From the sequence record MK962752: 64,000 nt of DNA; one strand, given 5' to 3'. Position 1 is the stretch's first letter, and every line of letters begins with the position of its first letter. Under the pieces are notes generated by a model. It saw only the letters and a program-made list of their open reading frames with translations, was not told the DNA's origin and ran no database searches. The position numbers and the translations under genes are program-made. Shown here one piece after another: positions 11,989 through 63,906 of this stretch. The stretch comes from Shigella phage JK23.

Positions 11989-13407
11989 TTATGGATAGGT
12001 ATAGATGATACCAGTTTCTAAAGCAGTTTTATGAATGATGTATCCATTACGCGATTCTTGAACATCAACTTCTGGATAGTCTTTCATCATCTTCTGAAGA
12101 GTGTAACGATGTAGGTAATATTTACTATCTGGGTCGTCAGTTTTCCAATCTTTACCTTCTTCGGTCATTTTTTGGATTTCATCCATAACCCACCAACCGC
12201 ACCAGATATAAGCTGAAGTACGATGTGGAAGAGGATGAACATAAGGTAGTTCACCTTCTGGTTCTGGAGCAACTTTATCAGTTACCTGAACTTGACCTTC
12301 TGCTGTAATAGTTTTGCTATCGTAATCAGTTGCAGTAACGACAGCAGTAACTTCAATAGTTTGACTTCCAACAGATGAGGTATCGACAGTATATACGTTA
12401 GTTGACCCTTCTACAGGAGAAGAATCTTTCTTCCATGAGTAAGTAATTTGTGCTTCTTCTGGAGCACCCGTAACATTAGCCGTAAATGTAGCCGAAGCAT
12501 CTTGCTGAACATTAATAGAAGGAGGAGTCAATGTAACCTGTGGATTCATTGTCTTCTTATTAACTGTCAATGATACTTCATTAGAAGTAACTTCCTTTTC
12601 ATTGTAATTTTCAGCAGTTACTTGAGCTACGCATTTAATTCTTTTTACTCCACTTGTAGTTGGAGTATAGTTAAATGTAGAGTTAGTTTCTCCACCAATT
12701 TGTGAATCATCTACATACCACTGATACGTAGCAGACGCTCCATCAGGTTGAGAAGCTAAGGCAGCAGTAAATTGAACTGGGGTTCCGATTACTCCCGCTG
12801 GAGGACTATCAGGAGTTACTGCCAAAGTAGTTGTCTGCGTCTTTTTATTAACAGTCAGTGACACTTCATTGGAAGTAACTTCCTTTGTATCATAATCTGT
12901 CGCGGTTACTTGAGCTACGCACTTAATTGTTTTAACTCCGCTTGCGTCAGGAGTGTAATTGAATGTAGTGCTAGTTGCTTCGCCCACAGGAGAACCGTCA
13001 ACGTACCATTGATACGTAGCGTTTGCACCTGATGGCTGTGAAGCTAAGGCAGCGGTAAATTCAATTGGAGTTCCAATCACTCCAGCATCAGGGCTACCAG
13101 GAGTTACTGCCAAAGTAGTTGTTTGTGTCTTATTTTGAACTGTGATAGTTGTACTAATTTCAGCTGTTTCAGGTTCAGATTCTGCAACTTGATTGGTTGC
13201 AACTACTTTAATAGTCTTTTGACCGGCAGGTCCTTTTAGTACATAACTAAAAGTTGCTGACGTTTCTTCCTGTGGAGCGTCGTCTACAGTCCAAGCATAT
13301 GTAATAGTTCCGCCTCCAGTTTCACCACTGGGTGTAGCAGTAAACTGCTTAGTTTCATCAATAACCCCTGTCGGTGTTTTAGGAGTTATATCAACTGTAA
13401 AAGTCAT
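11989..13407 (-). CDS. hoc: highly immunogenic outer capsid protein Hoc (4 Ig-like domains)
   Basis: 472-aa ORF of Thr/Val-rich Ig-like repeats with C-terminal capsid-binding region; translationally coupled downstream of inh. Confidence 0.85.
   Translation of the reverse strand: MTFTVDITPKTPTGVIDETKQFTATPSGETGGGTITYAWTVDDAPQEETSATFSYVLKGPAGQKTIKVVATNQVAESEPETAEISTTITVQNKTQTTTLAVTPGSPDAGVIGTPIEFTAALASQPSGANATYQWYVDGSPVGEATSTTFNYTPDASGVKTIKCVAQVTATDYDTKEVTSNEVSLTVNKKTQTTTLAVTPDSPPAGVIGTPVQFTAALASQPDGASATYQWYVDDSQIGGETNSTFNYTPTTSGVKRIKCVAQVTAENYNEKEVTSNEVSLTVNKKTMNPQVTLTPPSINVQQDASATFTANVTGAPEEAQITYSWKKDSSPVEGSTNVYTVDTSSVGSQTIEVTAVVTATDYDSKTITAEGQVQVTDKVAPEPEGELPYVHPLPHRTSAYIWCGWWVMDEIQKMTEEGKDWKTDDPDSKYYLHRYTLQKMMKDYPEVDVQESRNGYIIHKTALETGIIYTYP
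12556..13131 (-). repeat. tandem pair of ~288-bp units encoding two near-identical 96-aa Ig-like domains within hoc
   Basis: Protein residues 93-188 and 189-284 are about 85 percent identical (KTQTTTLAVTP...EVSLTVNK). Confidence 0.8.
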
Positions 13408-24213: not shown

Positions 24214-24504
24214 TTATTTACGGAATGAAATGAAAGCAGAAACTGAAGCAACTAAACTGTCTTCAATATAAACTTCAATTTTTACCGGAGCTTCTGACTC
24301 AAATTTACCTGTTACTACACCTTGGAAAATGCTTTCAGTCTGTTCTGGTTTTGAAAAATTTTCAGAAGGAAAAATTCCGAACTTTTTATCTGTTCCAAAA
24401 ATTTTAATAAATTCATCGTAAACTGCTTCATTAAAAGCATTATCAGCAGGAATAACGCCTTCAACGACGAGCTCTTGGCCTAAAAAGCGTAAAGAAGATT
24501 TCAT
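24214..24504 (-). CDS. hypothetical protein downstream of alt (alt.-N family)
   Basis: 96-aa ORF with ATG start, GAGGA RBS and early promoter upstream. Confidence 0.6.
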   Translation of the reverse strand: MKSSLRFLGQELVVEGVIPADNAFNEAVYDEFIKIFGTDKKFGIFPSENFSKPEQTESIFQGVVTGKFESEAPVKIEVYIEDSLVASVSAFISFRK

Positions 24505-24511
24505 TTTGTGT

Positions 24512-24565
24512 TCCTCATGTTATGTCAGTAAGACTACTATAACACAACACGAGGGACTTGTAAAC
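24512..24565 (-). repeat. 54-bp exact repeat, copy 1 (early promoter plus leader)
   Basis: Identical to 40482-40535. Confidence 0.9.
24536..24565 (-). promoter_or_regulatory. early promoter (-35 GTTTAC, -10 TATAGT)
   Basis: On - strand GTTTAC, 18-bp spacer, TATAGT, then GAGGA RBS; inside 54-bp repeat. Confidence 0.55.
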
Positions 24566-26622
24566 TACATTTTGAACTTTTTAGACATTCCGTTGATGTT
24601 AACCAAAGAAGCTAATATTTGAGAAACTTCGTTTTCCTCTTCTTTTGATTCTTCTACAAGGAATTGATTAAATCCAGCCATTGGACGAACTTCACCAGTT
24701 TCCATTAAATGGTCGCCATCATATACTGATTCTTCTAATTGGTCAGAAGGAGGAACGATTGTACCTTCGATTAGATACTTGTTATAAGCAGTTTCTTTCA
24801 TAAAGTACGTACTTACTTTATTAATCTTTAGTAAAATTCCGCGCGGTAGAATAACTTCAGCTTCTGATGGAAATCCTGATAAATGACCCGGAACGATAAC
24901 TTTGATTCGCTCAGCTCCTTTAATTACCATACCCACGCTAGTTTCAGCATCTTCATTAGCATATGTAGAATGACTACCCATATGCATCAAATCTTCTGCA
25001 TCAACAGAACCTTCTCCTTCGCCAGAAAATACTGCACCGGAATCATCTAGAGCCATATAGTTTTTACCATGCTCACCGAAGATATTTGGTTTAAGCGATG
25101 TCGATACGAAGTTCTTGAAATAGAACATTTTGTTTTCAATGTTATGACGCAAAGTTTTAAAGGTAACTTCTTGTCCACGATAAAGCGTAGTTCCTGGAGG
25201 AAGAACTGAACCTTTAGCGAATGCAGAATCCAACGTCTCAATGTGCTTAATAGCTCGTTCCATATATTCTTCACGGGTAGAATCTGGTTTACCCAAAAGG
25301 AACGAGTTCATTTCAACATATGAATCTGCACAATAATCTTCAATTACATCAGACTCAGCCTGAGTCAGTCCTTTTGGAGTTACTTCAGTGCTTGCGTATT
25401 CATATGCCTGAGCAGCAGATTCATTAATCAATTTATAAATGCCATTCATGACAAATTGAATAATAGCTGTCTTTTCATCTGGCGTAGCTTTAGAACCTTT
25501 AACCAAATCATTGATAATTTTCTTAATAACATCAAAGCTATTAGAAATATTAATATCAGCAAGATCGCTTAAAATTTTATCAGTTTTATAATCAAAGAAT
25601 TCTTTATTCTTTAAATATTCTTGAGAACCTTGATATGTTATATCGCTCTGCAACTTGATAGATGGATCACGTAAACGTGCATGGGCCAATGCAATATGAT
25701 TTCGGAAGTTTTCTAGTTCATAATCGCTAGATTTAAAACGAGAAGCACTTCTCATACCACCGATAGCTCCTTTGCCGAAGTTTGAACCAATCTGGATAAC
25801 GCCAGAGTTCATCGGACCTTCTGCTTTATATACCGGAACTTTAGATTCAAACTCTTGATATTTCTTGGCAGCGAAGCCATCACCCTGAAGTGAAGCATCG
25901 ACAGTAGAATATTGAGCTTGTGCTGCTAATCGACGACTAATTTTAGTTTTTTGAATAACAGCTTGATCCGTGCGCTTATCATTTTCTAAAGCAATAGAAG
26001 CAGCAACAGCGACAGCTTTAGGAACAGCATTACCTGTTTTAACATCTACATAAACATCACCGACCTTTGATTCAACTTTTGTGAATAACTCGGTTGAAAT
26101 AGGAGGTACACCTGGAATGTCTTCTAAATTGGCATTTTTACGGTAAACCATAATATATGCGTACTTTTTATCATAGTCCCAGATTTCCTTTAAAAGAACA
26201 TATCGACCTGCTCCTTTAGTACGTACTAAACGGTCAGCAATAACTTGCATTTGACGAGCTGCGCCATTTGTTTTACTTTTTAGTACGCGGAATAGACATG
26301 CGTCGATTTTATACTGTTTCATTGTTTGAAGAGCAGTATCAAAAACGGCATTAATGACACCAATTGGATTTCCACCCAAGTTTTTAAGCTTAACTAATGA
26401 TAGTTTCTCATTAACACCTATCATTACGATATGCATCATTTTATCGCCTGGTTTAACGTTTTTATTCGTATCACCACCAGAGGTGTATGTACAAAATCTA
26501 AATCCAGGAAGCACGCTTTCTTCGCCGGCTTGAATAGCAAAAATTTGTGGTATTTTATGCTTAGGATTTAAGTTAACAACCGGCGCCGAAGCGCCGTCAA
26601 ATAATTCTGTAATAAGTTCCAT
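24565..26622 (-). CDS. alt: Alt-like ADP-ribosyltransferase, paralogue 1
   Basis: 685-aa ORF; N-terminal MELITELFD (prohead-protease LxE site); C-terminal R-S-E ART motifs YRGQ / STSL / EAEVILPRG. Confidence 0.85.
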   Translation of the reverse strand: MELITELFDGASAPVVNLNPKHKIPQIFAIQAGEESVLPGFRFCTYTSGGDTNKNVKPGDKMMHIVMIGVNEKLSLVKLKNLGGNPIGVINAVFDTALQTMKQYKIDACLFRVLKSKTNGAARQMQVIADRLVRTKGAGRYVLLKEIWDYDKKYAYIMVYRKNANLEDIPGVPPISTELFTKVESKVGDVYVDVKTGNAVPKAVAVAASIALENDKRTDQAVIQKTKISRRLAAQAQYSTVDASLQGDGFAAKKYQEFESKVPVYKAEGPMNSGVIQIGSNFGKGAIGGMRSASRFKSSDYELENFRNHIALAHARLRDPSIKLQSDITYQGSQEYLKNKEFFDYKTDKILSDLADINISNSFDVIKKIINDLVKGSKATPDEKTAIIQFVMNGIYKLINESAAQAYEYASTEVTPKGLTQAESDVIEDYCADSYVEMNSFLLGKPDSTREEYMERAIKHIETLDSAFAKGSVLPPGTTLYRGQEVTFKTLRHNIENKMFYFKNFVSTSLKPNIFGEHGKNYMALDDSGAVFSGEGEGSVDAEDLMHMGSHSTYANEDAETSVGMVIKGAERIKVIVPGHLSGFPSEAEVILPRGILLKINKVSTYFMKETAYNKYLIEGTIVPPSDQLEESVYDGDHLMETGEVRPMAGFNQFLVEESKEEENEVSQILASLVNINGMSKKFKM

Positions 26623-26625
26623 GAT

Positions 26626-28722
26626 TTATCCTTGAACGAACTTGTAAGGCATGTTTGTAATATCTATGCAAGACGCAATAATTCCAAGAGATGATTCTAC
26701 TTTCTGTTTAACATTTGATGAAACAAATGATGCAAAGTCAACTCTGTCTTCTACTTCAATATCACCTGTCATTGCAACTACTTCGCCGGTTTCCATTAGA
26801 TGGTCACCGTCATAAATTACCGATTCGGTGAGTTCTTCTGTGGTCATAACTTCAGCTTGAATAAGTTTTGTATTATTAGATGTTGTTCCGTCATTATTAG
26901 AAGCATCAGTTATTTTATTAACTTTAACCATCAATCCGCGCGGTAGAATAACTTCAGCTTCTGTTGCTATTCCGAGACTTCCTGGATATACAACATTAAC
27001 TTTATGAGCTCCATCAATTGCCCATCCTATTTGAACTTTAACGTATTCAGGATTTTCTTTATACGCTCTTATTTCGTTTGGATTAATAGTTATTCCTTCT
27101 TCATTTTTATCAACTGTTAATTCATTGCGAGCTTCTGGTTCTAAAAGACCAATACCAGCATGTGTAATTCCAAAACGTCCAAAAATGATAGGAGTTAAAG
27201 AAGTAGATACAAAATTTCTGAAATAGAACACTTTATTTTTAACTAGTGCTTCGTATATAGGAGCAGTCATACTTTGAGCACGATAAACTGTAATGCCTTC
27301 TGGTATACGGTCACCATTTTCAAAAGCTGAATCTAAATTATTTATAGCAGATTCAATTTCTTTTTCACTCATTATATCATATCGTTCTGGATTGTAACGA
27401 CCTAAAAGAAGATTATTGATGTCTGTATATCCTGAACCACAATACTCTCTAATGCCGCGCTTTTGTGATGGAGTATATTTAGAACCATCACGGGCAATAG
27501 TAATATCAATCATTGGACCTGCACCAATTCCGGAAAAGCTATAAATCATTCGTTTGAGGAATTTAGTTTTTGCTGCATTCCAGGCATTTTTAGTTATTTC
27601 TCCCCAGACTTCATCTGGCTGCCCTTTACGAGTTTTATTATGTTTATCAAGCCAATTATCTTTATATTCTTCAAATAATTGATTAACAGCTGCTGCGTAT
27701 TTCTCTAAACATTTTATTGAAGTAGTTGGTTCATTTTTAATCGCATTAAGAATTACATCTTTAATTTTTTCTGAAACTTCACCGACTTGACTCATTGGAA
27801 AGAATTTATAATCATAGTGAAGTTCATCTGCCGTTCCTTCAGCAATAATTTTTGCTGCCTTAGTTTTAGAAGCTAATGAATTAATTCCAAGCTTCATTTC
27901 TTCTGCTTCGGGAATTAAAGGTGCAGTAGCAGGTTTATTGAAATTAGCTGCGGTAGATTCATACTTCTGGAATAATTCACTTTCAAATCTAGAAGATTCC
28001 AATGACTGACTTTGTGCAATTGCTCTACGGGAAATTTTAACTTTAACGATTACGGCTTGGTCAGAACGTTTATCGTTTTCTTGTGCAATAGATGCAGCAA
28101 TTGCCTCATTTTTGGTTACTTGAGCTCCAGTATCTTTATTAATATAAACATCACCGACCTTCGATTCAACTTTAGTAAAGAGCTCGGTACTAATTTCCGG
28201 AACTCCTGGAATGTCTTCTAGTGATACATTTTTGCGATGTATAAGAATATATGCATACTTTTTATCATAATCCCAGAGTTCCTTAAGAAGGACGTATCTG
28301 CCACCTGAACGACTACGGATAAGTCTATCAGCAATAACTTGAATTTGTCGAGCTTGGCCAGCAGTTTTAGACTTAAGAATACGAAGCATACAAGCATCAA
28401 TTTTATACTGACGCATTGTTTGCATTGCAACAGTAAAAACTGAATTGATATAATTAATTGGGCTTGGACCAAGACCTTTTAATTTAGCAATTGAACCTTT
28501 AGCAGTTAATGTAAAAGGAACAATATGCATCATTTTATCGCCCATTTTTAAATCACGATTAGTATCACCTCCAGATGTATAGGTACATAAACGAAAGCCT
28601 GGTTGTTCAATTGCATCATCAACATGAACTGAAAAAATTTGTGGTATTTTCTTCTTTGGATTTAAGTTTGTAATCGGAAGAGTAGTATCTTCGTCAAATA
28701 ATTCTGTAATGAGTTCCATCAT
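26626..28722 (-). CDS. alt: Alt-like ADP-ribosyltransferase, paralogue 2
   Basis: 698-aa ORF; same N-terminal MELITELFD and C-terminal YRAQ / STSL / EAEVILPRG motifs, divergent central region; late promoter upstream. Confidence 0.85.
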   Translation of the reverse strand: MMELITELFDEDTTLPITNLNPKKKIPQIFSVHVDDAIEQPGFRLCTYTSGGDTNRDLKMGDKMMHIVPFTLTAKGSIAKLKGLGPSPINYINSVFTVAMQTMRQYKIDACMLRILKSKTAGQARQIQVIADRLIRSRSGGRYVLLKELWDYDKKYAYILIHRKNVSLEDIPGVPEISTELFTKVESKVGDVYINKDTGAQVTKNEAIAASIAQENDKRSDQAVIVKVKISRRAIAQSQSLESSRFESELFQKYESTAANFNKPATAPLIPEAEEMKLGINSLASKTKAAKIIAEGTADELHYDYKFFPMSQVGEVSEKIKDVILNAIKNEPTTSIKCLEKYAAAVNQLFEEYKDNWLDKHNKTRKGQPDEVWGEITKNAWNAAKTKFLKRMIYSFSGIGAGPMIDITIARDGSKYTPSQKRGIREYCGSGYTDINNLLLGRYNPERYDIMSEKEIESAINNLDSAFENGDRIPEGITVYRAQSMTAPIYEALVKNKVFYFRNFVSTSLTPIIFGRFGITHAGIGLLEPEARNELTVDKNEEGITINPNEIRAYKENPEYVKVQIGWAIDGAHKVNVVYPGSLGIATEAEVILPRGLMVKVNKITDASNNDGTTSNNTKLIQAEVMTTEELTESVIYDGDHLMETGEVVAMTGDIEVEDRVDFASFVSSNVKQKVESSLGIIASCIDITNMPYKFVQG

Positions 28723-28742: not shown

Positions 28743-28750
28743 TATTTATA
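28743..28750 (-). promoter_or_regulatory. late promoter TATAAATA on - strand (alt paralogue 2)
   Basis: Plus-strand TATTTATA between a hairpin and the alt RBS (GAGAGG). Confidence 0.6.
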
Positions 28751-33133: not shown

Positions 33134-33466
33134 TTATTTTACTACTTTCCAATGCTGCATGTCAAGTTTACCAACTTTTTTCATCTTCTCAATTAAGCGT
33201 TCGGCACGTTGGCGAGCTGTAACATAATACCATTCACCTAATTCATTTTGTTCAATTTTTCCAACGATTACTGTATTCAATTCATAAATCCAACCAGTAA
33301 AGAAATTATGAACTTGAATTGTAAAGGTGAAATCTGTTCCCATACCTTCTGTTGTTTCTACTTCAATAATATCACCTTCAACTGCCATTAAGAACCACAT
33401 AGTTTCATCATATTTACCATTGAAGCATTTAGTTTTAACTGCAGCGTTCAGATTAATCGTTTTCAT
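33134..33466 (-). CDS. 30.8: hypothetical protein 30.8
   Basis: 110-aa ORF, ATG start. Confidence 0.6.
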   Translation of the reverse strand: MKTINLNAAVKTKCFNGKYDETMWFLMAVEGDIIEVETTEGMGTDFTFTIQVHNFFTGWIYELNTVIVGKIEQNELGEWYYVTARQRAERLIEKMKKVGKLDMQHWKVVK

Positions 33467-33552
33467 TTTATTCTCCTTTGTTTGTGTAAGATAATACTAT
33501 CACAAAGGAACCATACTGTAAACAACTTTATGCAATCTTTGGAAAATAAAAA

Positions 33553-39630: not shown

Positions 39631-39980
39631 TTAGAAAGGTCCTGGATGTCTTCTGCGAACTTGTTGAAGGAGTTGTTGATTTGTTTTTCAACCAATCCTG
39701 GCTTACGAGCCACCACATCCGCCTTCTTTGCATCTTTGCGCAGTTTTTCATTTTCACGCTCAATAGCAGCAATCGCCTCACGATTTTTATTATTCATCGC
39801 ATCAATATAATTATACTGAATTCGCAAATTATTTAATGCTAAGGCGTTTTCATTGGCTGTTTTTGTAATTTCAGTAACTGATGTTTCTAATCTTTCTACC
39901 TTATTTTTTAAAATAATAGATGTTCCGCCAAATGCTATTACAAGTAATAGCAATCCAGCTGTAAAATTACTTAATTGCAT
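39627..39980 (-). CDS. predicted membrane-anchored coiled-coil protein
   Basis: 117-aa ORF with N-terminal hydrophobic helix (AGLLLLVIAFGGTSIIL) then charged coiled-coil. Confidence 0.55.
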   Translation of the reverse strand: MQLSNFTAGLLLLVIAFGGTSIILKNKVERLETSVTEITKTANENALALNNLRIQYNYIDAMNNKNREAIAAIERENEKLRKDAKKADVVARKPGLVEKQINNSFNKFAEDIQDLSK

Positions 39981-40477
39981 AAAGTTTTAATAACCTCTAT
40001 AATATCGTCTTGAGAAAGACCGTTAATTAAAATATGATGTTCAGCCGGAGATTTAGAAATTTTAAAGCATGCCTCAACATCTTCTGCCATATCCGATGCG
40101 CTACGATTTGGATTACTAATTCCAAGACGATGTTTTCCCGTTAAAGGATTAACGATGATATAGCATTTACAGTTGTTAATATGAACATTAGGTTGAGTCT
40201 GATTAATGAACACATCGCAATCATATTTCGCAAGCTGATTTTCTAAAAAGACTTTCATCTCTTCAACCGCATCAGGAAGCATATCACGGGCTTGCTCAAG
40301 ACGACGATTTCGATATTCTTTAATGGTCGTTTTCCGCTTGACTTGCTTAGCTAAATCTTTCTTAAGATCGGTGATATATCCAACTCGACGGTTTCCTTTA
40401 AATACAGAAATCCCATCTGTAGTATCACCGTATGCTTCAACGACCATTTCAGTAGTAATGAGCTGCAAATCCATCAT
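39971..40477 (-). CDS. alc: Alc transcription-elongation inhibitor
   Basis: 168-aa ORF (T4 Alc ~167 aa) between pseT cluster and rnlA; early promoter upstream. Confidence 0.75.
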   Translation of the reverse strand: MMDLQLITTEMVVEAYGDTTDGISVFKGNRRVGYITDLKKDLAKQVKRKTTIKEYRNRRLEQARDMLPDAVEEMKVFLENQLAKYDCDVFINQTQPNVHINNCKCYIIVNPLTGKHRLGISNPNRSASDMAEDVEACFKISKSPAEHHILINGLSQDDIIEVIKTLCN

Positions 40478-40481
40478 AAAG

Positions 40482-40535
40482 TCCTCATGTTATGTCAGTA
40501 AGACTACTATAACACAACACGAGGGACTTGTAAAC
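40482..40535 (-). repeat. 54-bp exact repeat, copy 2 (early promoter plus leader of alc)
   Basis: Identical to 24512-24565. Confidence 0.9.
40506..40535 (-). promoter_or_regulatory. early promoter of alc (-35 GTTTAC, -10 TATAGT)
   Basis: Identical sequence to 24536-24565. Confidence 0.55.
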
Positions 40536-40538
40536 AGC

Positions 40539-42126
<1,588 letters not shown>

Positions 42127-48875: not shown

Positions 48876-49013
48876 TTTATTCTCCTTAGCAAGCTTTAAT
48901 CAAAAGATATAAACAGACCAACATAACTGCTGCCATAATATAAGGTGCGAACATTTTCTTTTCTCCATTAGTTTTGATAGGGTAATAGTATCACACTACT
49001 ACCCTGTTGTAAA

Positions 49014-58790: not shown

Positions 58791-60710
58791 ATGGCTACTT
58801 TAAAACAAATACAATTTAAAAGAAGCAAAACTGCAGGTCAACGTCCTGCTGCTTCAGTATTAGCCGAAGGTGAATTGGCTATAAACTTAAAAGATAAAAC
58901 AATTTTCACAAAAGATGACTCAGGTAGTGTTATAGAATTAGGTTTAAAATATGGAGGAACAATTGATGGTTCTTTAACTGTTAATGGAAATATAATTGGA
59001 AATTTAACAGGTAACGCTGCAACTGCAACGAAATTAAAAACAGCACGAAAAATTAATGGTATATCCTTTGATGGGTCAAAGGATATCACGCTAACTCCAT
59101 CTGACATAAATGTCAATAGCACAACATTTATAAAAAATAATGGCGAATTACCTGTTGATGCTAATTTAGATGAGTATGGGCCTGTTGAAGAATATCTTGG
59201 TGTTTGGTCGAAAGCAACTTCAACCAACGCTCAACCAGCAAATAAATTTCCAGAAGAAAATGCTGTAGGTGTGCTAGAAGTATTTGTGGCCGGTCAATTT
59301 GCTGGTACTCAGAGATATACAACTAGATACGGAAATGTTTATATTCGTTCCTTGACTGCTACATGGAACGGAGTAAATGGTCCGTGGAGTGTGTGGCGAA
59401 ATATTCAATCCGGTACTCGTCCACTGTCAACAACAATTGATCTTAATGATCTAGGAGGCGCTGAACACTTTGGTTTGTGGCGAAATAGTTCAAATTCCAT
59501 TGCTACCTTTGACAGAAATTTCCCAGAAGAGGGGTCGTCAGCTCAAGGTCTTTTGGAAGTATATGAAGGTGGAAACTATTCTCGTACACAAAGATATACA
59601 ACCAGATTTGGTGTTGTATATACTCGTTGTCTTGCTGCCGCGTGGGATGCTTCCGCGCCTAAATGGGGACCGTGGCAACAAGTCGGTAATGTCACACCAG
59701 CGACTTTCTATGACGGAGATCTGAATGATTTTAAAACCCCTGGGTTATATAATATTTTAGGCACTGATGCCGTTATTAACTGTCCTACAGGTGAAGGTTT
59801 GCCGACTGTTATTGTTGGTTTGCTGGAAGTTAAACAACGTGCTTCTGGCGGTGCTATTTTCCAAAAATTTACTACTGCCGGAACGGGTGCAACTACTCGC
59901 GATCGTATTTTTGAGCGTGCATATACTGGTGGTGTGTGGGGTGCATGGAACGAAGTATATACATCTTACTCTCTGCCAATTACTTTAGGTATGGGTGGTA
60001 TTAAAACTCAATTAGCGGAGCTAGATTGGCAAACATTTGATTTTGTTCCTGGTAGTATGTTTAGCGTTCCTTTGAACAAAATAAAGAACATGCCAGCTAA
60101 TATGAATTGGGGCACGATTGACGGAAACTTAATTATGTTTTCTGTTGGTCCTAGCGAGCACACCAGCACAGGACGTACTGTTCAGGTTTGGCGTGGAACT
60201 GTATCCCAGACAAACTATCGTTATTTTGTCGTTCGTGTGTTCGGTAATTCTGGAAATAGAACTTGCACAGTTCGCCGTGTTGTTCTTGAAGACGGATCAC
60301 ATACTTGGACTGCTCAACAAAACTTTAGGGGATTGCTGAATATCACTGCTGCTGTTAATCTTGGTGCTAATCAGAAAATTTCACTTGCTCCAGGAGCATA
60401 TATTCAAGCCCCTGCTAGCGGTTCTGGTTCTAATACTTACGCAAATCAGAATACTACCATTGCGCCATTATATCAGGCTATTGACGATTCAAATAAAAAC
60501 CAGTTTGCGCCAATTGTTAAACAGAAAAATACTGTAAGTAATATCACCTTTGCCACTGGTATGGCTATAGGTACATCCGAATATAAGATCATTGCTCAGG
60601 GTGATTTATCCGCTGATGGAACAGCAGATGGGTTAAAACAGTGGACTTTCATGCCGTCAGGTTATTTTAAATCTCCAGGGCGTGTATATGTCATTATATC
60701 AGGCTATTGA
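58791..60710 (+). CDS. 37: long tail fibre distal subunit gp37, N-terminal 639-aa ORF ending at a frameshift
   Basis: ATG 58791; frame terminates at TGA 60708-60710, 17 bp into the second copy of a 226-bp tandem duplication. Confidence 0.85.
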
Positions 60711-60917
60711 CGATTCAAATAAAAACCAGTTTGCGCCAATTGTTAAACAGAAAAATACTGTAAGTAATATCACCTTTGCCACTGGTATGGCTATAGGTAC
60801 ATCCGAATATAAGATCATTGCTCAGGGTGATTTATCCGCTGATGGAACAGCAGATGGGTTAAAACAGTGGACTTTCATGCCGTCAGGTTATTTTAAATCT
60901 CCAGGGCGTGTATATGT
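60466..60917 (+). repeat. perfect tandem direct duplication, 2 x 226 bp, inside gene 37
   Basis: 60466-60691 is base-for-base identical to 60692-60917; 226 is not a multiple of 3. Confidence 0.95.
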
Positions 60918-61962
60918 CGGTGATGCGTTCCTTAATACAGATGGTAATATTGCCGGTTCAATCTGGAAGAAATATAACAATGCGACAAATTTAGATGCTG
61001 CCTTGAATACTCGCGTAGGTAAAGGCGGTGATACGATGACAGGTCGGTTAACAATCAATGCACCTAATGATTCTATTGTATTATCAACGACTGCTAGTAA
61101 TTCTTTGCATATTCGTGGTGACATAGACGGGACTGGTAACTGGTATATTGGTAAGGGTGGTGCTGATAATTCGCTAGCATTTTATAGCTATGCTTCTCAG
61201 GCGGCAGTACATATCACAAACAATGGTGAGATTGCGTTAAACCCGCAAAATACCGCAATGGTTAACGTTAACCGTGACCGTGTACACATTAACGGTTCTG
61301 GATGGATTGCTAGACAACCGGGTGATTGGGGCAACCAATGGCGAGTAGAAGCTCCATTATTCGTTGATCATGGTTATGTTTCACAGGATTGTTATTATCC
61401 TATTCTTAAAGCAAGAAGCGTTATAACCAATCAAGGATATAGCACCGCTGTTGACTTTGGTATGCGTCGTATTCCATCACAGTGGGGGCAAGCAATCATT
61501 CGTGTCGGATCCACGGAGGCTTCTCCTGATGCTGGACACCCACAAGCTATATTTGAATTCCATCATGATGGATTCTTTTATACACCAGGAAATGGTAGCT
61601 TTAGCGATGTGTATATTCGTTCTGACTCCCGTCTCAAGATTAATAAAGAAGAATTAGAATATGGAGCGGTCGAAAAAGTTTGCCGACTGAAAGTTTATAT
61701 TTACGATAAAGTTAAGTCTATTAAAGACCGTAGTGTTATTAAACGTGAAGTTGGTATTATTGCTCAGGACCTTGAAAAGGAATTACCGGAAGCTGTATCT
61801 AAAGTTGAAGTTGATGGATCTGATGTTCTGACAATTTCTAACTCTGCTGTGAATGCTCTTTTAATTAAGGCTATTCAGGAAATGAGTGAAGAAATTAAAG
61901 AATTGAAAACGCCTCTCTTTACTAAAATTGCTCGCAAAATTAGTAAATATTTTAAATTCTAA
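60682..61962 (+). pseudogene. 37: gp37 C-terminal portion (+1 frame relative to N-terminal ORF), including C-terminal chaperone-like domain
   Basis: No ATG (track start is GTG); repeats residues [10 protein letters not shown]...SPGRVYV of the upstream ORF, then continues; C-terminus has SDSRLKINKEEL motif typical of tail-fibre intramolecular chaperone domains. Confidence 0.8.
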
Positions 61963-63753: not shown

Positions 63754-63906
63754 TCAATTAGTTGACTTTGTTATAATATCATCAGACGCTTGATTTGTAA
63801 ACTGGTCTGTGTTATTTTCTTCAAAAATTTTTTCTACGAATTCCTTGAACGACTCGCGTTCCTGAGCTACATTATGCTCGATTACCTTTTCAAGATTATA
63901 ACTCAT
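63754..63906 (-). CDS. hypothetical small protein (50 aa)
   Basis: ATG 63906 overlaps stop of upstream ORF (ATGA); not in ORF track; asiA promoter lies in its 3' part. Confidence 0.35.
   Translation of the reverse strand: MSYNLEKVIEHNVAQERESFKEFVEKIFEENNTDQFTNQASDDIITKSTN
63773..63802 (-). promoter_or_regulatory. early promoter of asiA (GTTTAC, 18 bp, TATTAT)
   Basis: Read on - strand, about 30 bp upstream of asiA ATG. Confidence 0.55.

Follow-up and report, generated by a model that had tools for sequence, protein, structure and literature searches.

The window analyzed here, a stretch of 64,000 nucleotides of Shigella phage JK23 (sequence record MK962752), carries the 54-bp sequence GTTTACAAGTCCCTCGTGTTGTGTTATAGTAGTCTTACTGACATAACATGAGGA (minus strand) twice, once in front of alc and once in front of alt.-3. 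The repeat is probably a promoter-in-hairpin cassette that ties the translation of both genes to their own early promoter and insulates it from read-through transcription. RNA initiated upstream would contain both arms of an 18-22 bp hairpin that buries the Shine-Dalgarno (SD) sequence, leaving the downstream gene poorly translated. RNA initiated at the cassette's own promoter would start inside the hairpin, lack the 5' arm and have its SD free. This most likely role is predicted from folding and from the co-variation of the two arms across genera.

The window is of Tequatrovirus type (T4 group) and around 500 phage records match the flanks of the repeat at 95-99.8% identity. Within the window the 54-mer was found at exactly two places (Table 1). 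Allowing up to 3 mismatches did not bring up a third copy there, and 0 matches were obtained from 100 dinucleotide-preserving shuffles of the window, the chance expectation being 0. The search bore out the exact identity of the two loci as claimed in an earlier note made from the sequence alone, and the gene assignments given there, alc and a small ORF downstream of alt (alt.-3), hold as well. Copy 1 is located between an Alt-like gene and alt.-3, and its first base is the last base of the stop codon of the Alt-like paralogue, the transcripts of which read into the cassette. Copy 2 is located between rnlA and alc. The identity breaks off abruptly on both sides, with unlike flanks upstream (...aaaatgta vs ...actaagct) and downstream (ACACAAAATG vs CTTTATGATG). 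The immediate-early protein Alc terminates transcription on DNA that contains cytosine (PMC2988021). The uncharacterised protein Alt.-3 is dispensable, and mutants with a C-terminal extension escape the CmdTAC defence (PMC11618068).

Table 1. Positions of the two cassette copies, their elements and the neighbouring genes in the window.
Feature	Position	Strand	Basis
Cassette copy 1 (alt.-3 copy), full 54-bp repeat	24512..24565	-	sequence search
Cassette copy 2 (alc copy), full 54-bp repeat	40482..40535	-	sequence search
alt.-3, 96 aa, gene served by copy 1	24214..24504	-	
Alt-like paralogue, 685 aa, upstream of copy 1	24565..26622	-	
alt, 698 aa, farther upstream of copy 1	26626..28722	-	
alc, 167 aa from ATG 40474 (T4 annotation); 168 aa from 40477	39971..40474/40477	-	
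rnlA (gene 63), upstream of copy 2	40539..41699	-	
-35 hexamer TTTACA, copy 1	24559..24564	-	promoter scan
Extended -10 (TGT TATAGT), copy 1	24536..24544	-	promoter scan
-35 hexamer TTTACA, copy 2	40529..40534	-	promoter scan
Extended -10 (TGT TATAGT), copy 2	40506..40514	-	promoter scan
SD GAGGA, copy 1	24512-24516	-	
SD, copy 2	40482-40486	-	
Predicted start of own transcript, copy 1	near 24529	-	inferred from promoter geometry
Predicted start of own transcript, copy 2	near 40499	-	inferred from promoter geometry
5' arm, copy 1 (54-mer 12-25 and 28-31; promoter spacer and -10; anti-SD CCTC)	24535..24554	-	
3' arm, copy 1 (54-mer 36-53; leader, SD GAGG)	24513..24530	-	
5' arm, copy 2, stem extended outward to position 7 (AAGTCC)	40505..40529	-	
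3' arm, copy 2, with SD, 3 nt past the repeat (GGACTT)	40479..40500	-	
Late-promoter motif TATAAATA, ~20 nt upstream of the alt start	28743..28750	-	motif search; function inferred

Both copies contain the same promoter-like site, TTTACA and TATAGT separated by a 17-nt spacer, with a TG in front of the -10 element and 10 out of 12 matches in the promoter scan. The cassette conforms to the early-promoter consensus and, judged by these elements, is predicted to act as a strong sigma-70 early promoter (TTTACA-17-TGnTATAGT). The GAGGA sequence is found 7 nt before the ATG of alt.-3 and 4 and 7 nt before the two ATGs of alc. The earlier interpretation as an early promoter with a ribosome-binding site was therefore sound for both copies, including the TATAGT; the -35 element, read before as GTTTAC, is better placed in the register TTTACA. 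The proposal that both genes are under identical control applies to the core promoter and the SD, but the UP-element regions, the distance between SD and ATG and the context of upstream transcription differ. Directly upstream of the alt.-3 copy lies AAAAAGTTCAAAATGTA and beside the -35 of the alc copy GGATACTAAGCT, with A/T-rich sequence only farther upstream of the latter; all of this is outside the repeat.

The description of the cassette as a promoter with a leader was correct, but it overlooked the main feature, which is a long hairpin in which the promoter spacer is paired to the SD. In the predicted fold of the sense (minus) strand, positions 12-25 of the 54-mer pair with 40-53 and positions 28-31 with 36-39, which makes the hairpin an imperfect inverted repeat of 18-22 bp. 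At alc the stem extends outward to the pair 7-57. The sense-strand folds reached -23.3 and -29.9 kcal/mol in 91-nt contexts (z = -3.7 and -3.8), and 0 of 200 shuffles were as stable as either of them. Since the stem contains three G.U pairs the hairpin is specific for the sense strand (-24.4 and -23.0 kcal/mol, vs -15.4 and -17.2 kcal/mol for the antisense strand). The start site, around 7 nt after TATAGT, would be in the loop or the 3' arm and thus the own transcript should be unable to form the hairpin. The predicted cost of opening the region from SD through AUG was 14.1 (alt.-3) and 16.2 kcal/mol (alc) in read-through RNA, and 4.2 and 3.5 kcal/mol, respectively, in the own transcript. Opening energies were used for this comparison because the probability of an unpaired SD is misleading for the own transcript of alt.-3, in which a weak and trivial 5-bp alternative pairing, of the SD with codons 3-5, is dominant. 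By prediction and geometry, then, the SD is paired in RNA that is initiated upstream, and free in the own transcript, from which the 5' arm is missing.

The same calculation for the other early-type promoters of the window gave 1-7 kcal/mol for six out of seven, with similar values for read-through RNA and own transcript, and the alc promoters of NHEP11 and PSTCR6 likewise cost 1-7 kcal/mol, again with the two RNAs much alike. The exception in the window was the promoter at 33466-33522 (minus strand), which precedes the gene at the position of T4 30.8, with 10.3 kcal/mol for read-through RNA vs 0.3 kcal/mol for the own transcript. Its spacer TTCCTTTGTG pairs with the SD CAAAGGAG, which makes it a third, unrelated instance of the design within the window. 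Most of the other early-type promoters had a stem-loop that straddles the -10 and ends before the SD. Those at 49013, 37214, 33130 and 53029 (minus strand) have inverted repeats of their own, 6-12 bp long, with one arm in the spacer, the other just past the start site and the SD free. The straddling inverted repeat looks like a general feature of the early promoters in JK23, similar to the PeSL cassettes discussed below. A reading of the cassette as a RegB site was rejected, as the SD in Tequatrovirus lacks GGAG.

Read-through RNA would reach copy 2 from rnlA and beyond, and copy 1 from alt and the Alt paralogue. The late-promoter motif in front of alt (see Table 1) is the likely source of late read-through RNA that arrives at copy 1, as judged from the motif. 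No terminator was predicted between alt, the Alt paralogue and alt.-3 and late alt RNA should therefore enter alt.-3, in which case the hairpin would keep alt.-3 silent on late alt transcripts. Upstream of rnlA no late-promoter motif was found within the window, which weakens the rationale for insulating alc.

Homologs of Alc are present in many genera of the Straboviridae, and the region upstream of alc was compared in twelve other lineages. Seven of these (Gelderlandvirus, Karamvirus, Jiaodavirus, Bragavirus, Dhakavirus, Roskildevirus and Winklervirus) shared the layout, with different stem sequences: GTTTACA, immediately after it a 5' arm with CTCC or CCTC in the spacer, TGnTAnnAT, around 15-20 nt, a 3' arm that covers the SD, and the ATG. 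The stem is formed by ATCTCCGTTTAGTT/AACTAAACGGAGAT in Gelderlandvirus and by TCCTCATTTCGTT/AACGAAATGAGGA in Winklervirus. Opening was predicted to cost 8-17 kcal/mol in read-through RNA and 0.6-3.1 kcal/mol in the own transcript in the seven genera. Co-variation of the arms was assessed with an alignment-free test of our own design, in which the duplex energy was calculated between the spacer and the 24-nt region preceding the ATG. The mean was -19.1 kcal/mol for spacers paired with the region from their own genus, vs -10.2 kcal/mol for mismatched genera (permutation p=6e-5). MAFFT and RNAalifold did not return a consensus structure for the eight alc cassettes (one per genus), because the arms shift position between genera. 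The design was absent upstream of alc in NHEP11, PSTCR6, Gaprivervirus ECML-359, Ac42 and phiAS4. In ECML-359 a 234-nt ORF annotated as Alc-like (L018, 354-587) directly precedes the full alc, and this partial alc duplication stands in place of the promoter cassette.

Within Tequatrovirus, the search with the 54-mer recovered 997 places in 499 records, all of Tequatrovirus type and with around 2 copies each, including T4, T2, T6, RB14 and RB32. At least one exact copy was present in 257 of the 499 records. T4 has both copies, with 53 out of 54 positions identical and G40A in the alt.-3 copy as the sole difference. For a closer comparison we used 29 copies from 16 genomes or samples, a set that is small and was in part picked for divergence. 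Of the stem cells 97.9% were paired within the genus. The changes that kept the stem paired included C15U (giving U.G), G16A and G40A (both G.U to A-U), C42U and A46G, and there was one compensatory change, of C15-G50 to U-A, with U.G intermediates. Three stem changes broke a pair, namely G16U, G40U and G29A, of which G29A turns the -10 into the better TATAAT. Co-variation within the genus was not significant, the observed values being attained in 126 of 500 shuffles; conservation among the sequences is too high for such a test. A pattern scan of metagenomes returned 13 loci, 10 of which were Tequatrovirus copies and the other three (L029, L033 and L040) unrelated promoters. In IMG/VR, scans with the protein Alc or Alt.-3 gave no more than 5-6 loci apiece.

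How the two copies came to be identical can be explained in several ways, one being that the 54 bp are just the extended consensus of T4 early promoters. Elements such as GTTTAC, TGnTAnnnT, CTTAC near the start site and a GAGG-type SD indeed recur in the window and in other genera. The window has seven further early-type promoters on this strand (starts at 63801, 53029, 49727, 49013, 37214, 33522 and 33130), which share GTTTAC, TGnTAnnnT and an SD with the cassette. Their agreement with the 54-mer, however, is limited to 17-30 of 54 positions without gaps and 36-40 of 60 with gaps, while the alc/alt.-3 pair reaches 55 of 60. Considering also the lack of a third copy and the limit of around two places per genome, this explanation is hardly credible and was rejected. 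The earlier note had itself named an invariant consensus as the alternative to its own proposal, which was recent gene conversion or promoter-mediated shuffling of modules. Conversion, recent or ongoing, would account for the exact match of 54 out of 54 bases in the window genome. Furthermore, at positions 15, 16, 27 and 32 an identical derived base occurs at the two loci in different genomes, phage GBLB0003 carries G16A and T27C in both copies, and the overlap of variable sites exceeds that of random placement (around 0.02 by our own hypergeometric estimate). The four positions are, however, wobble, bulge and loop positions of the hairpin, and the overlap can be attributed to the constraint that the hairpin imposes on both loci, leaving unpaired and wobble positions free to vary. 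Against conversion, the two copies are present in 499 out of 499 records and at both loci the 54-mer of the window is more frequent than any other sequence (11 of the 29 copies). Where both copies were recovered, in 13 genomes or samples, they are 0-5 bases apart, with 5 differences in T6 and 4 in two other genomes. Moreover, homogenisation within genomes was not apparent in these 13, as the paralogues differed on average at 2.15 positions within a genome vs 2.33 between genomes (permutation p=0.16). Recent or ongoing conversion is therefore unlikely to be what keeps the loci identical, although short conversions may occasionally have taken place between them. The best reading of the perfect identity in the window is that both loci retained the ancestral sequence. 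The sequence comparisons support the view that the two-copy cassette is an old feature, conserved throughout the genus, and not the product of a recent duplication.

The repeat could also be a linker of the PeSL type, with a stem-loop that terminates or attenuates transcription from upstream and with homologous recombination at the repeat, which shuffles the flanked genes, as its main purpose. The anatomy of both copies matches the composite described for PeSL (PMC2839356), 54 bp is around the minimum homology for T4 recombination cited there, and the stem-loops straddling the -10 of most other early-type promoters in the window fit as well. A scan of the minus strand, however, detected no terminator-like site at either copy, that is, no G+C-rich hairpin followed by a U run; a U tract after the stem was missing from both copies and from the seven other genera, and the stems are not of the GGGG/CCCC kind. 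A terminator was rejected on these grounds, and the 3' arm always covers the SD, for which a pure terminator has no need. Shuffling does not agree with the flank comparison either: the flanking genes were the same in 405-496 of the 499 records, thus in essentially all, and with around 2 copies per genome there is no sign of the many copies or the hyperplastic regions of PeSL. In addition, the copies are separated by 16 kb that include DNA ligase and gene 31, and loss of this stretch should be lethal. A linker function of this kind is accordingly improbable. Even less likely is that the inverted repeat acts as DNA, either as the operator of a dimeric regulator or as a cruciform, and modulates the promoter, for instance in early shut-off. 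The centre of the palindrome, in the region of the -10 and the start site, is at a position typical of operators, and the mechanism that shuts off T4 early promoters has been described as not fully understood (PMC3014915). Moreover, the stems outside Tequatrovirus are mostly perfect Watson-Crick palindromes, which fit either strand and are equally compatible with DNA and RNA. Yet the stem sequence is different in each genus and in each promoter of the window, leaving no common site for a protein, and the Tequatrovirus stem has three G.T and no A.C pairs and is much weaker on the other strand. What is constant across the genera is the complementarity to the SD, which is a signal at the level of RNA.

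The homologs of alt.-3 in Gelderland-, Jiaoda-, Dhaka- and Karamvirus also have an early promoter, with a small hairpin that lies wholly in the spacer, an AAGGA-like loop and a free SD. These promoters are unlike the alc cassette of the same phage, and the anti-SD design is absent at alt.-3 in the four genera. We infer that the anti-SD design is ancestral at alc and that the identity of alc and alt.-3 is specific to Tequatrovirus; non-Tequatrovirus records had one place each for the 54-mer. As the cassettes at the two loci are unlike in other genera, the copy event is probably old, at the base of the genus. The simplest history would be a single ectopic copy event from alc to alt.-3 in the ancestor of Tequatrovirus, with a tract bounded by GTTTACA and ACATGAGGA, motifs that would already have been present in both promoters. 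Both copies would since have been conserved, with independent point changes. The direction from alc to alt.-3 is favoured by these comparisons, and also by the fact that the stem of the alc copy runs 3 nt past the repeat. A blastn search did not recover any lineage standing between Tequatrovirus and the other genera. The alt.-3 leader ACATGAGGAACA is common to Gelderlandvirus and Tequatrovirus.

Promoters with a spacer hairpin were found at alt.-3 in the loci L023 (12188, minus strand), L024, L025, L027 and L046, and at alc in L020. In NHEP11 both the alc and the alt.-3 promoter have a small hairpin in the spacer between -35 and -10 with a purine-rich, SD-like loop (ATGGA at alt.-3). These two cassettes, which belong to this other hairpin class, are identical at 48 of 60 positions, a possible sign that alc and alt.-3 exchanged cassettes on another occasion.

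Several other observations concern the surroundings of copy 1 and other parts of the window. The region 24565-28722 encodes a tandem pair of Alt-type ADP-ribosyltransferase paralogues, both full-length (685 and 698 aa), of the second of which T4 keeps only remnants (alt.-1/alt.-2); Dhakavirus UGJNEcP4 has three such paralogues in tandem. The truncation of the T4 type (L001 5094-5130, compared with window positions 24566-24600) stops around 19 nt short of the cassette, with the final codons (...KKFKM) and the stop codon retained. Judged from this comparison, the T4 deletion left the cassette intact and had no endpoint in it. Elsewhere, positions 60466-60917 hold a perfect tandem duplication of 226 nt (2.0 copies, 100% identical), with a period that is not a multiple of 3. 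It is located in the gene for the distal part of the long tail fibre (gene 37 position), which it splits into ORFs 58791-60710 and 60682-61962, and reflects either an error of assembly or a genuine duplication that shifts the frame. A 288-nt tandem repeat at 12551-13126, in two copies that are 77% identical, has 96 codons per unit and would fit repeated protein domains. Ig-like domains, as in Hoc, are a possible identity for them.

A repeated early promoter is by itself ordinary for the T4 group of phages, and for annotation the identity of the copies should be taken as a conserved old duplication and not as a recombination scar. If the masking is real, an immediate-early gene that is situated downstream of continuously or late transcribed genes would be kept off on read-through RNA. 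The promoter spacer, usually deemed free sequence, would then be under constraint at the RNA level, and the cassette would constitute a natural, compact and portable part for phage engineering. A more far-reaching and tentative possibility, which we consider rather doubtful, is that it represents an undescribed 'promoter-of-origin' translational insulator, with an anti-SD in the spacer of an early promoter that would confine translation of the gene to RNA begun there, present at alc in at least eight genera and portable, as it would have been transplanted to alt.-3. Older T4 papers aside, the literature searched contained no earlier description of the alc/alt.-3 repeat or of the alc hairpin, and no start-site maps for T4 were found in it.

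Three known systems resemble the cassette. The PeSL cassettes of RB49 and phi1 consist of an upstream stop codon, a promoter, a stem-loop and an SD with start codon (Arbiol et al. 2010, PMC2839356), and analogous, more AT-rich elements were described on T4 early promoters of T-even phages (PMC2839356); according to the citation given there, PeSL-like elements at the IP loci of T-even phages go back to Repoila et al. 1994. The cassette is likewise an intergenic composite of an upstream stop codon, -35 and -10 boxes, a stem-loop that overlaps the -10 or lies between the boxes, and an SD with start codon, with G-T pairs in the stem and repetition within the genome. It differs in having only two near-identical copies, fixed at the same two loci throughout the genus, without insertions or deletions of ORFs at its borders. 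Its stem is rich in AU and GU and lacks both the polyG/polyC (GGGG...CCCC) sequence and a terminator-like tail, and, with the SD itself forming the 3' arm, the cassette is predicted to affect translation and not termination.

The promoter belongs close to the T4 'UP/-35/TGn/-10' class (PMC2988021), with which it shares GTTTACA, a 17-bp spacer, TGn and a location before an immediate-early gene (alc). The -10 is TATAGT in the cassette and TATAAT in that class, the UP regions of the two copies are unrelated and the spacer is constrained by the pairing to the SD.

With respect to function, the closest parallels are T4 e, soc, 49 and I-TevI, in which an RNA hairpin that contains a promoter masks the ribosome-binding site (PMC3014915, section 29); that review lists neither alc nor alt.-3 among the known cases. 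In both systems the SD is paired in RNA derived from upstream, and the RNA from the internal promoter lacks the 5' arm and is translatable, for the cassette by prediction. The internal promoters of the known cases are late or middle, whereas that of the cassette is an early sigma-70 promoter, and no late motif TATAAATA was found inside the cassette. The direction of control is also reversed: masking of e, soc, 49 and I-TevI silences a late gene on early RNA, whereas the cassette would silence an early gene on read-through or late RNA. Finally, the cassette is set apart from the known masking hairpins by its 5' arm, which is the spacer of its own promoter. If the masking is real, it would add an early-promoter case to the classic promoter-inside-hairpin control of T4.
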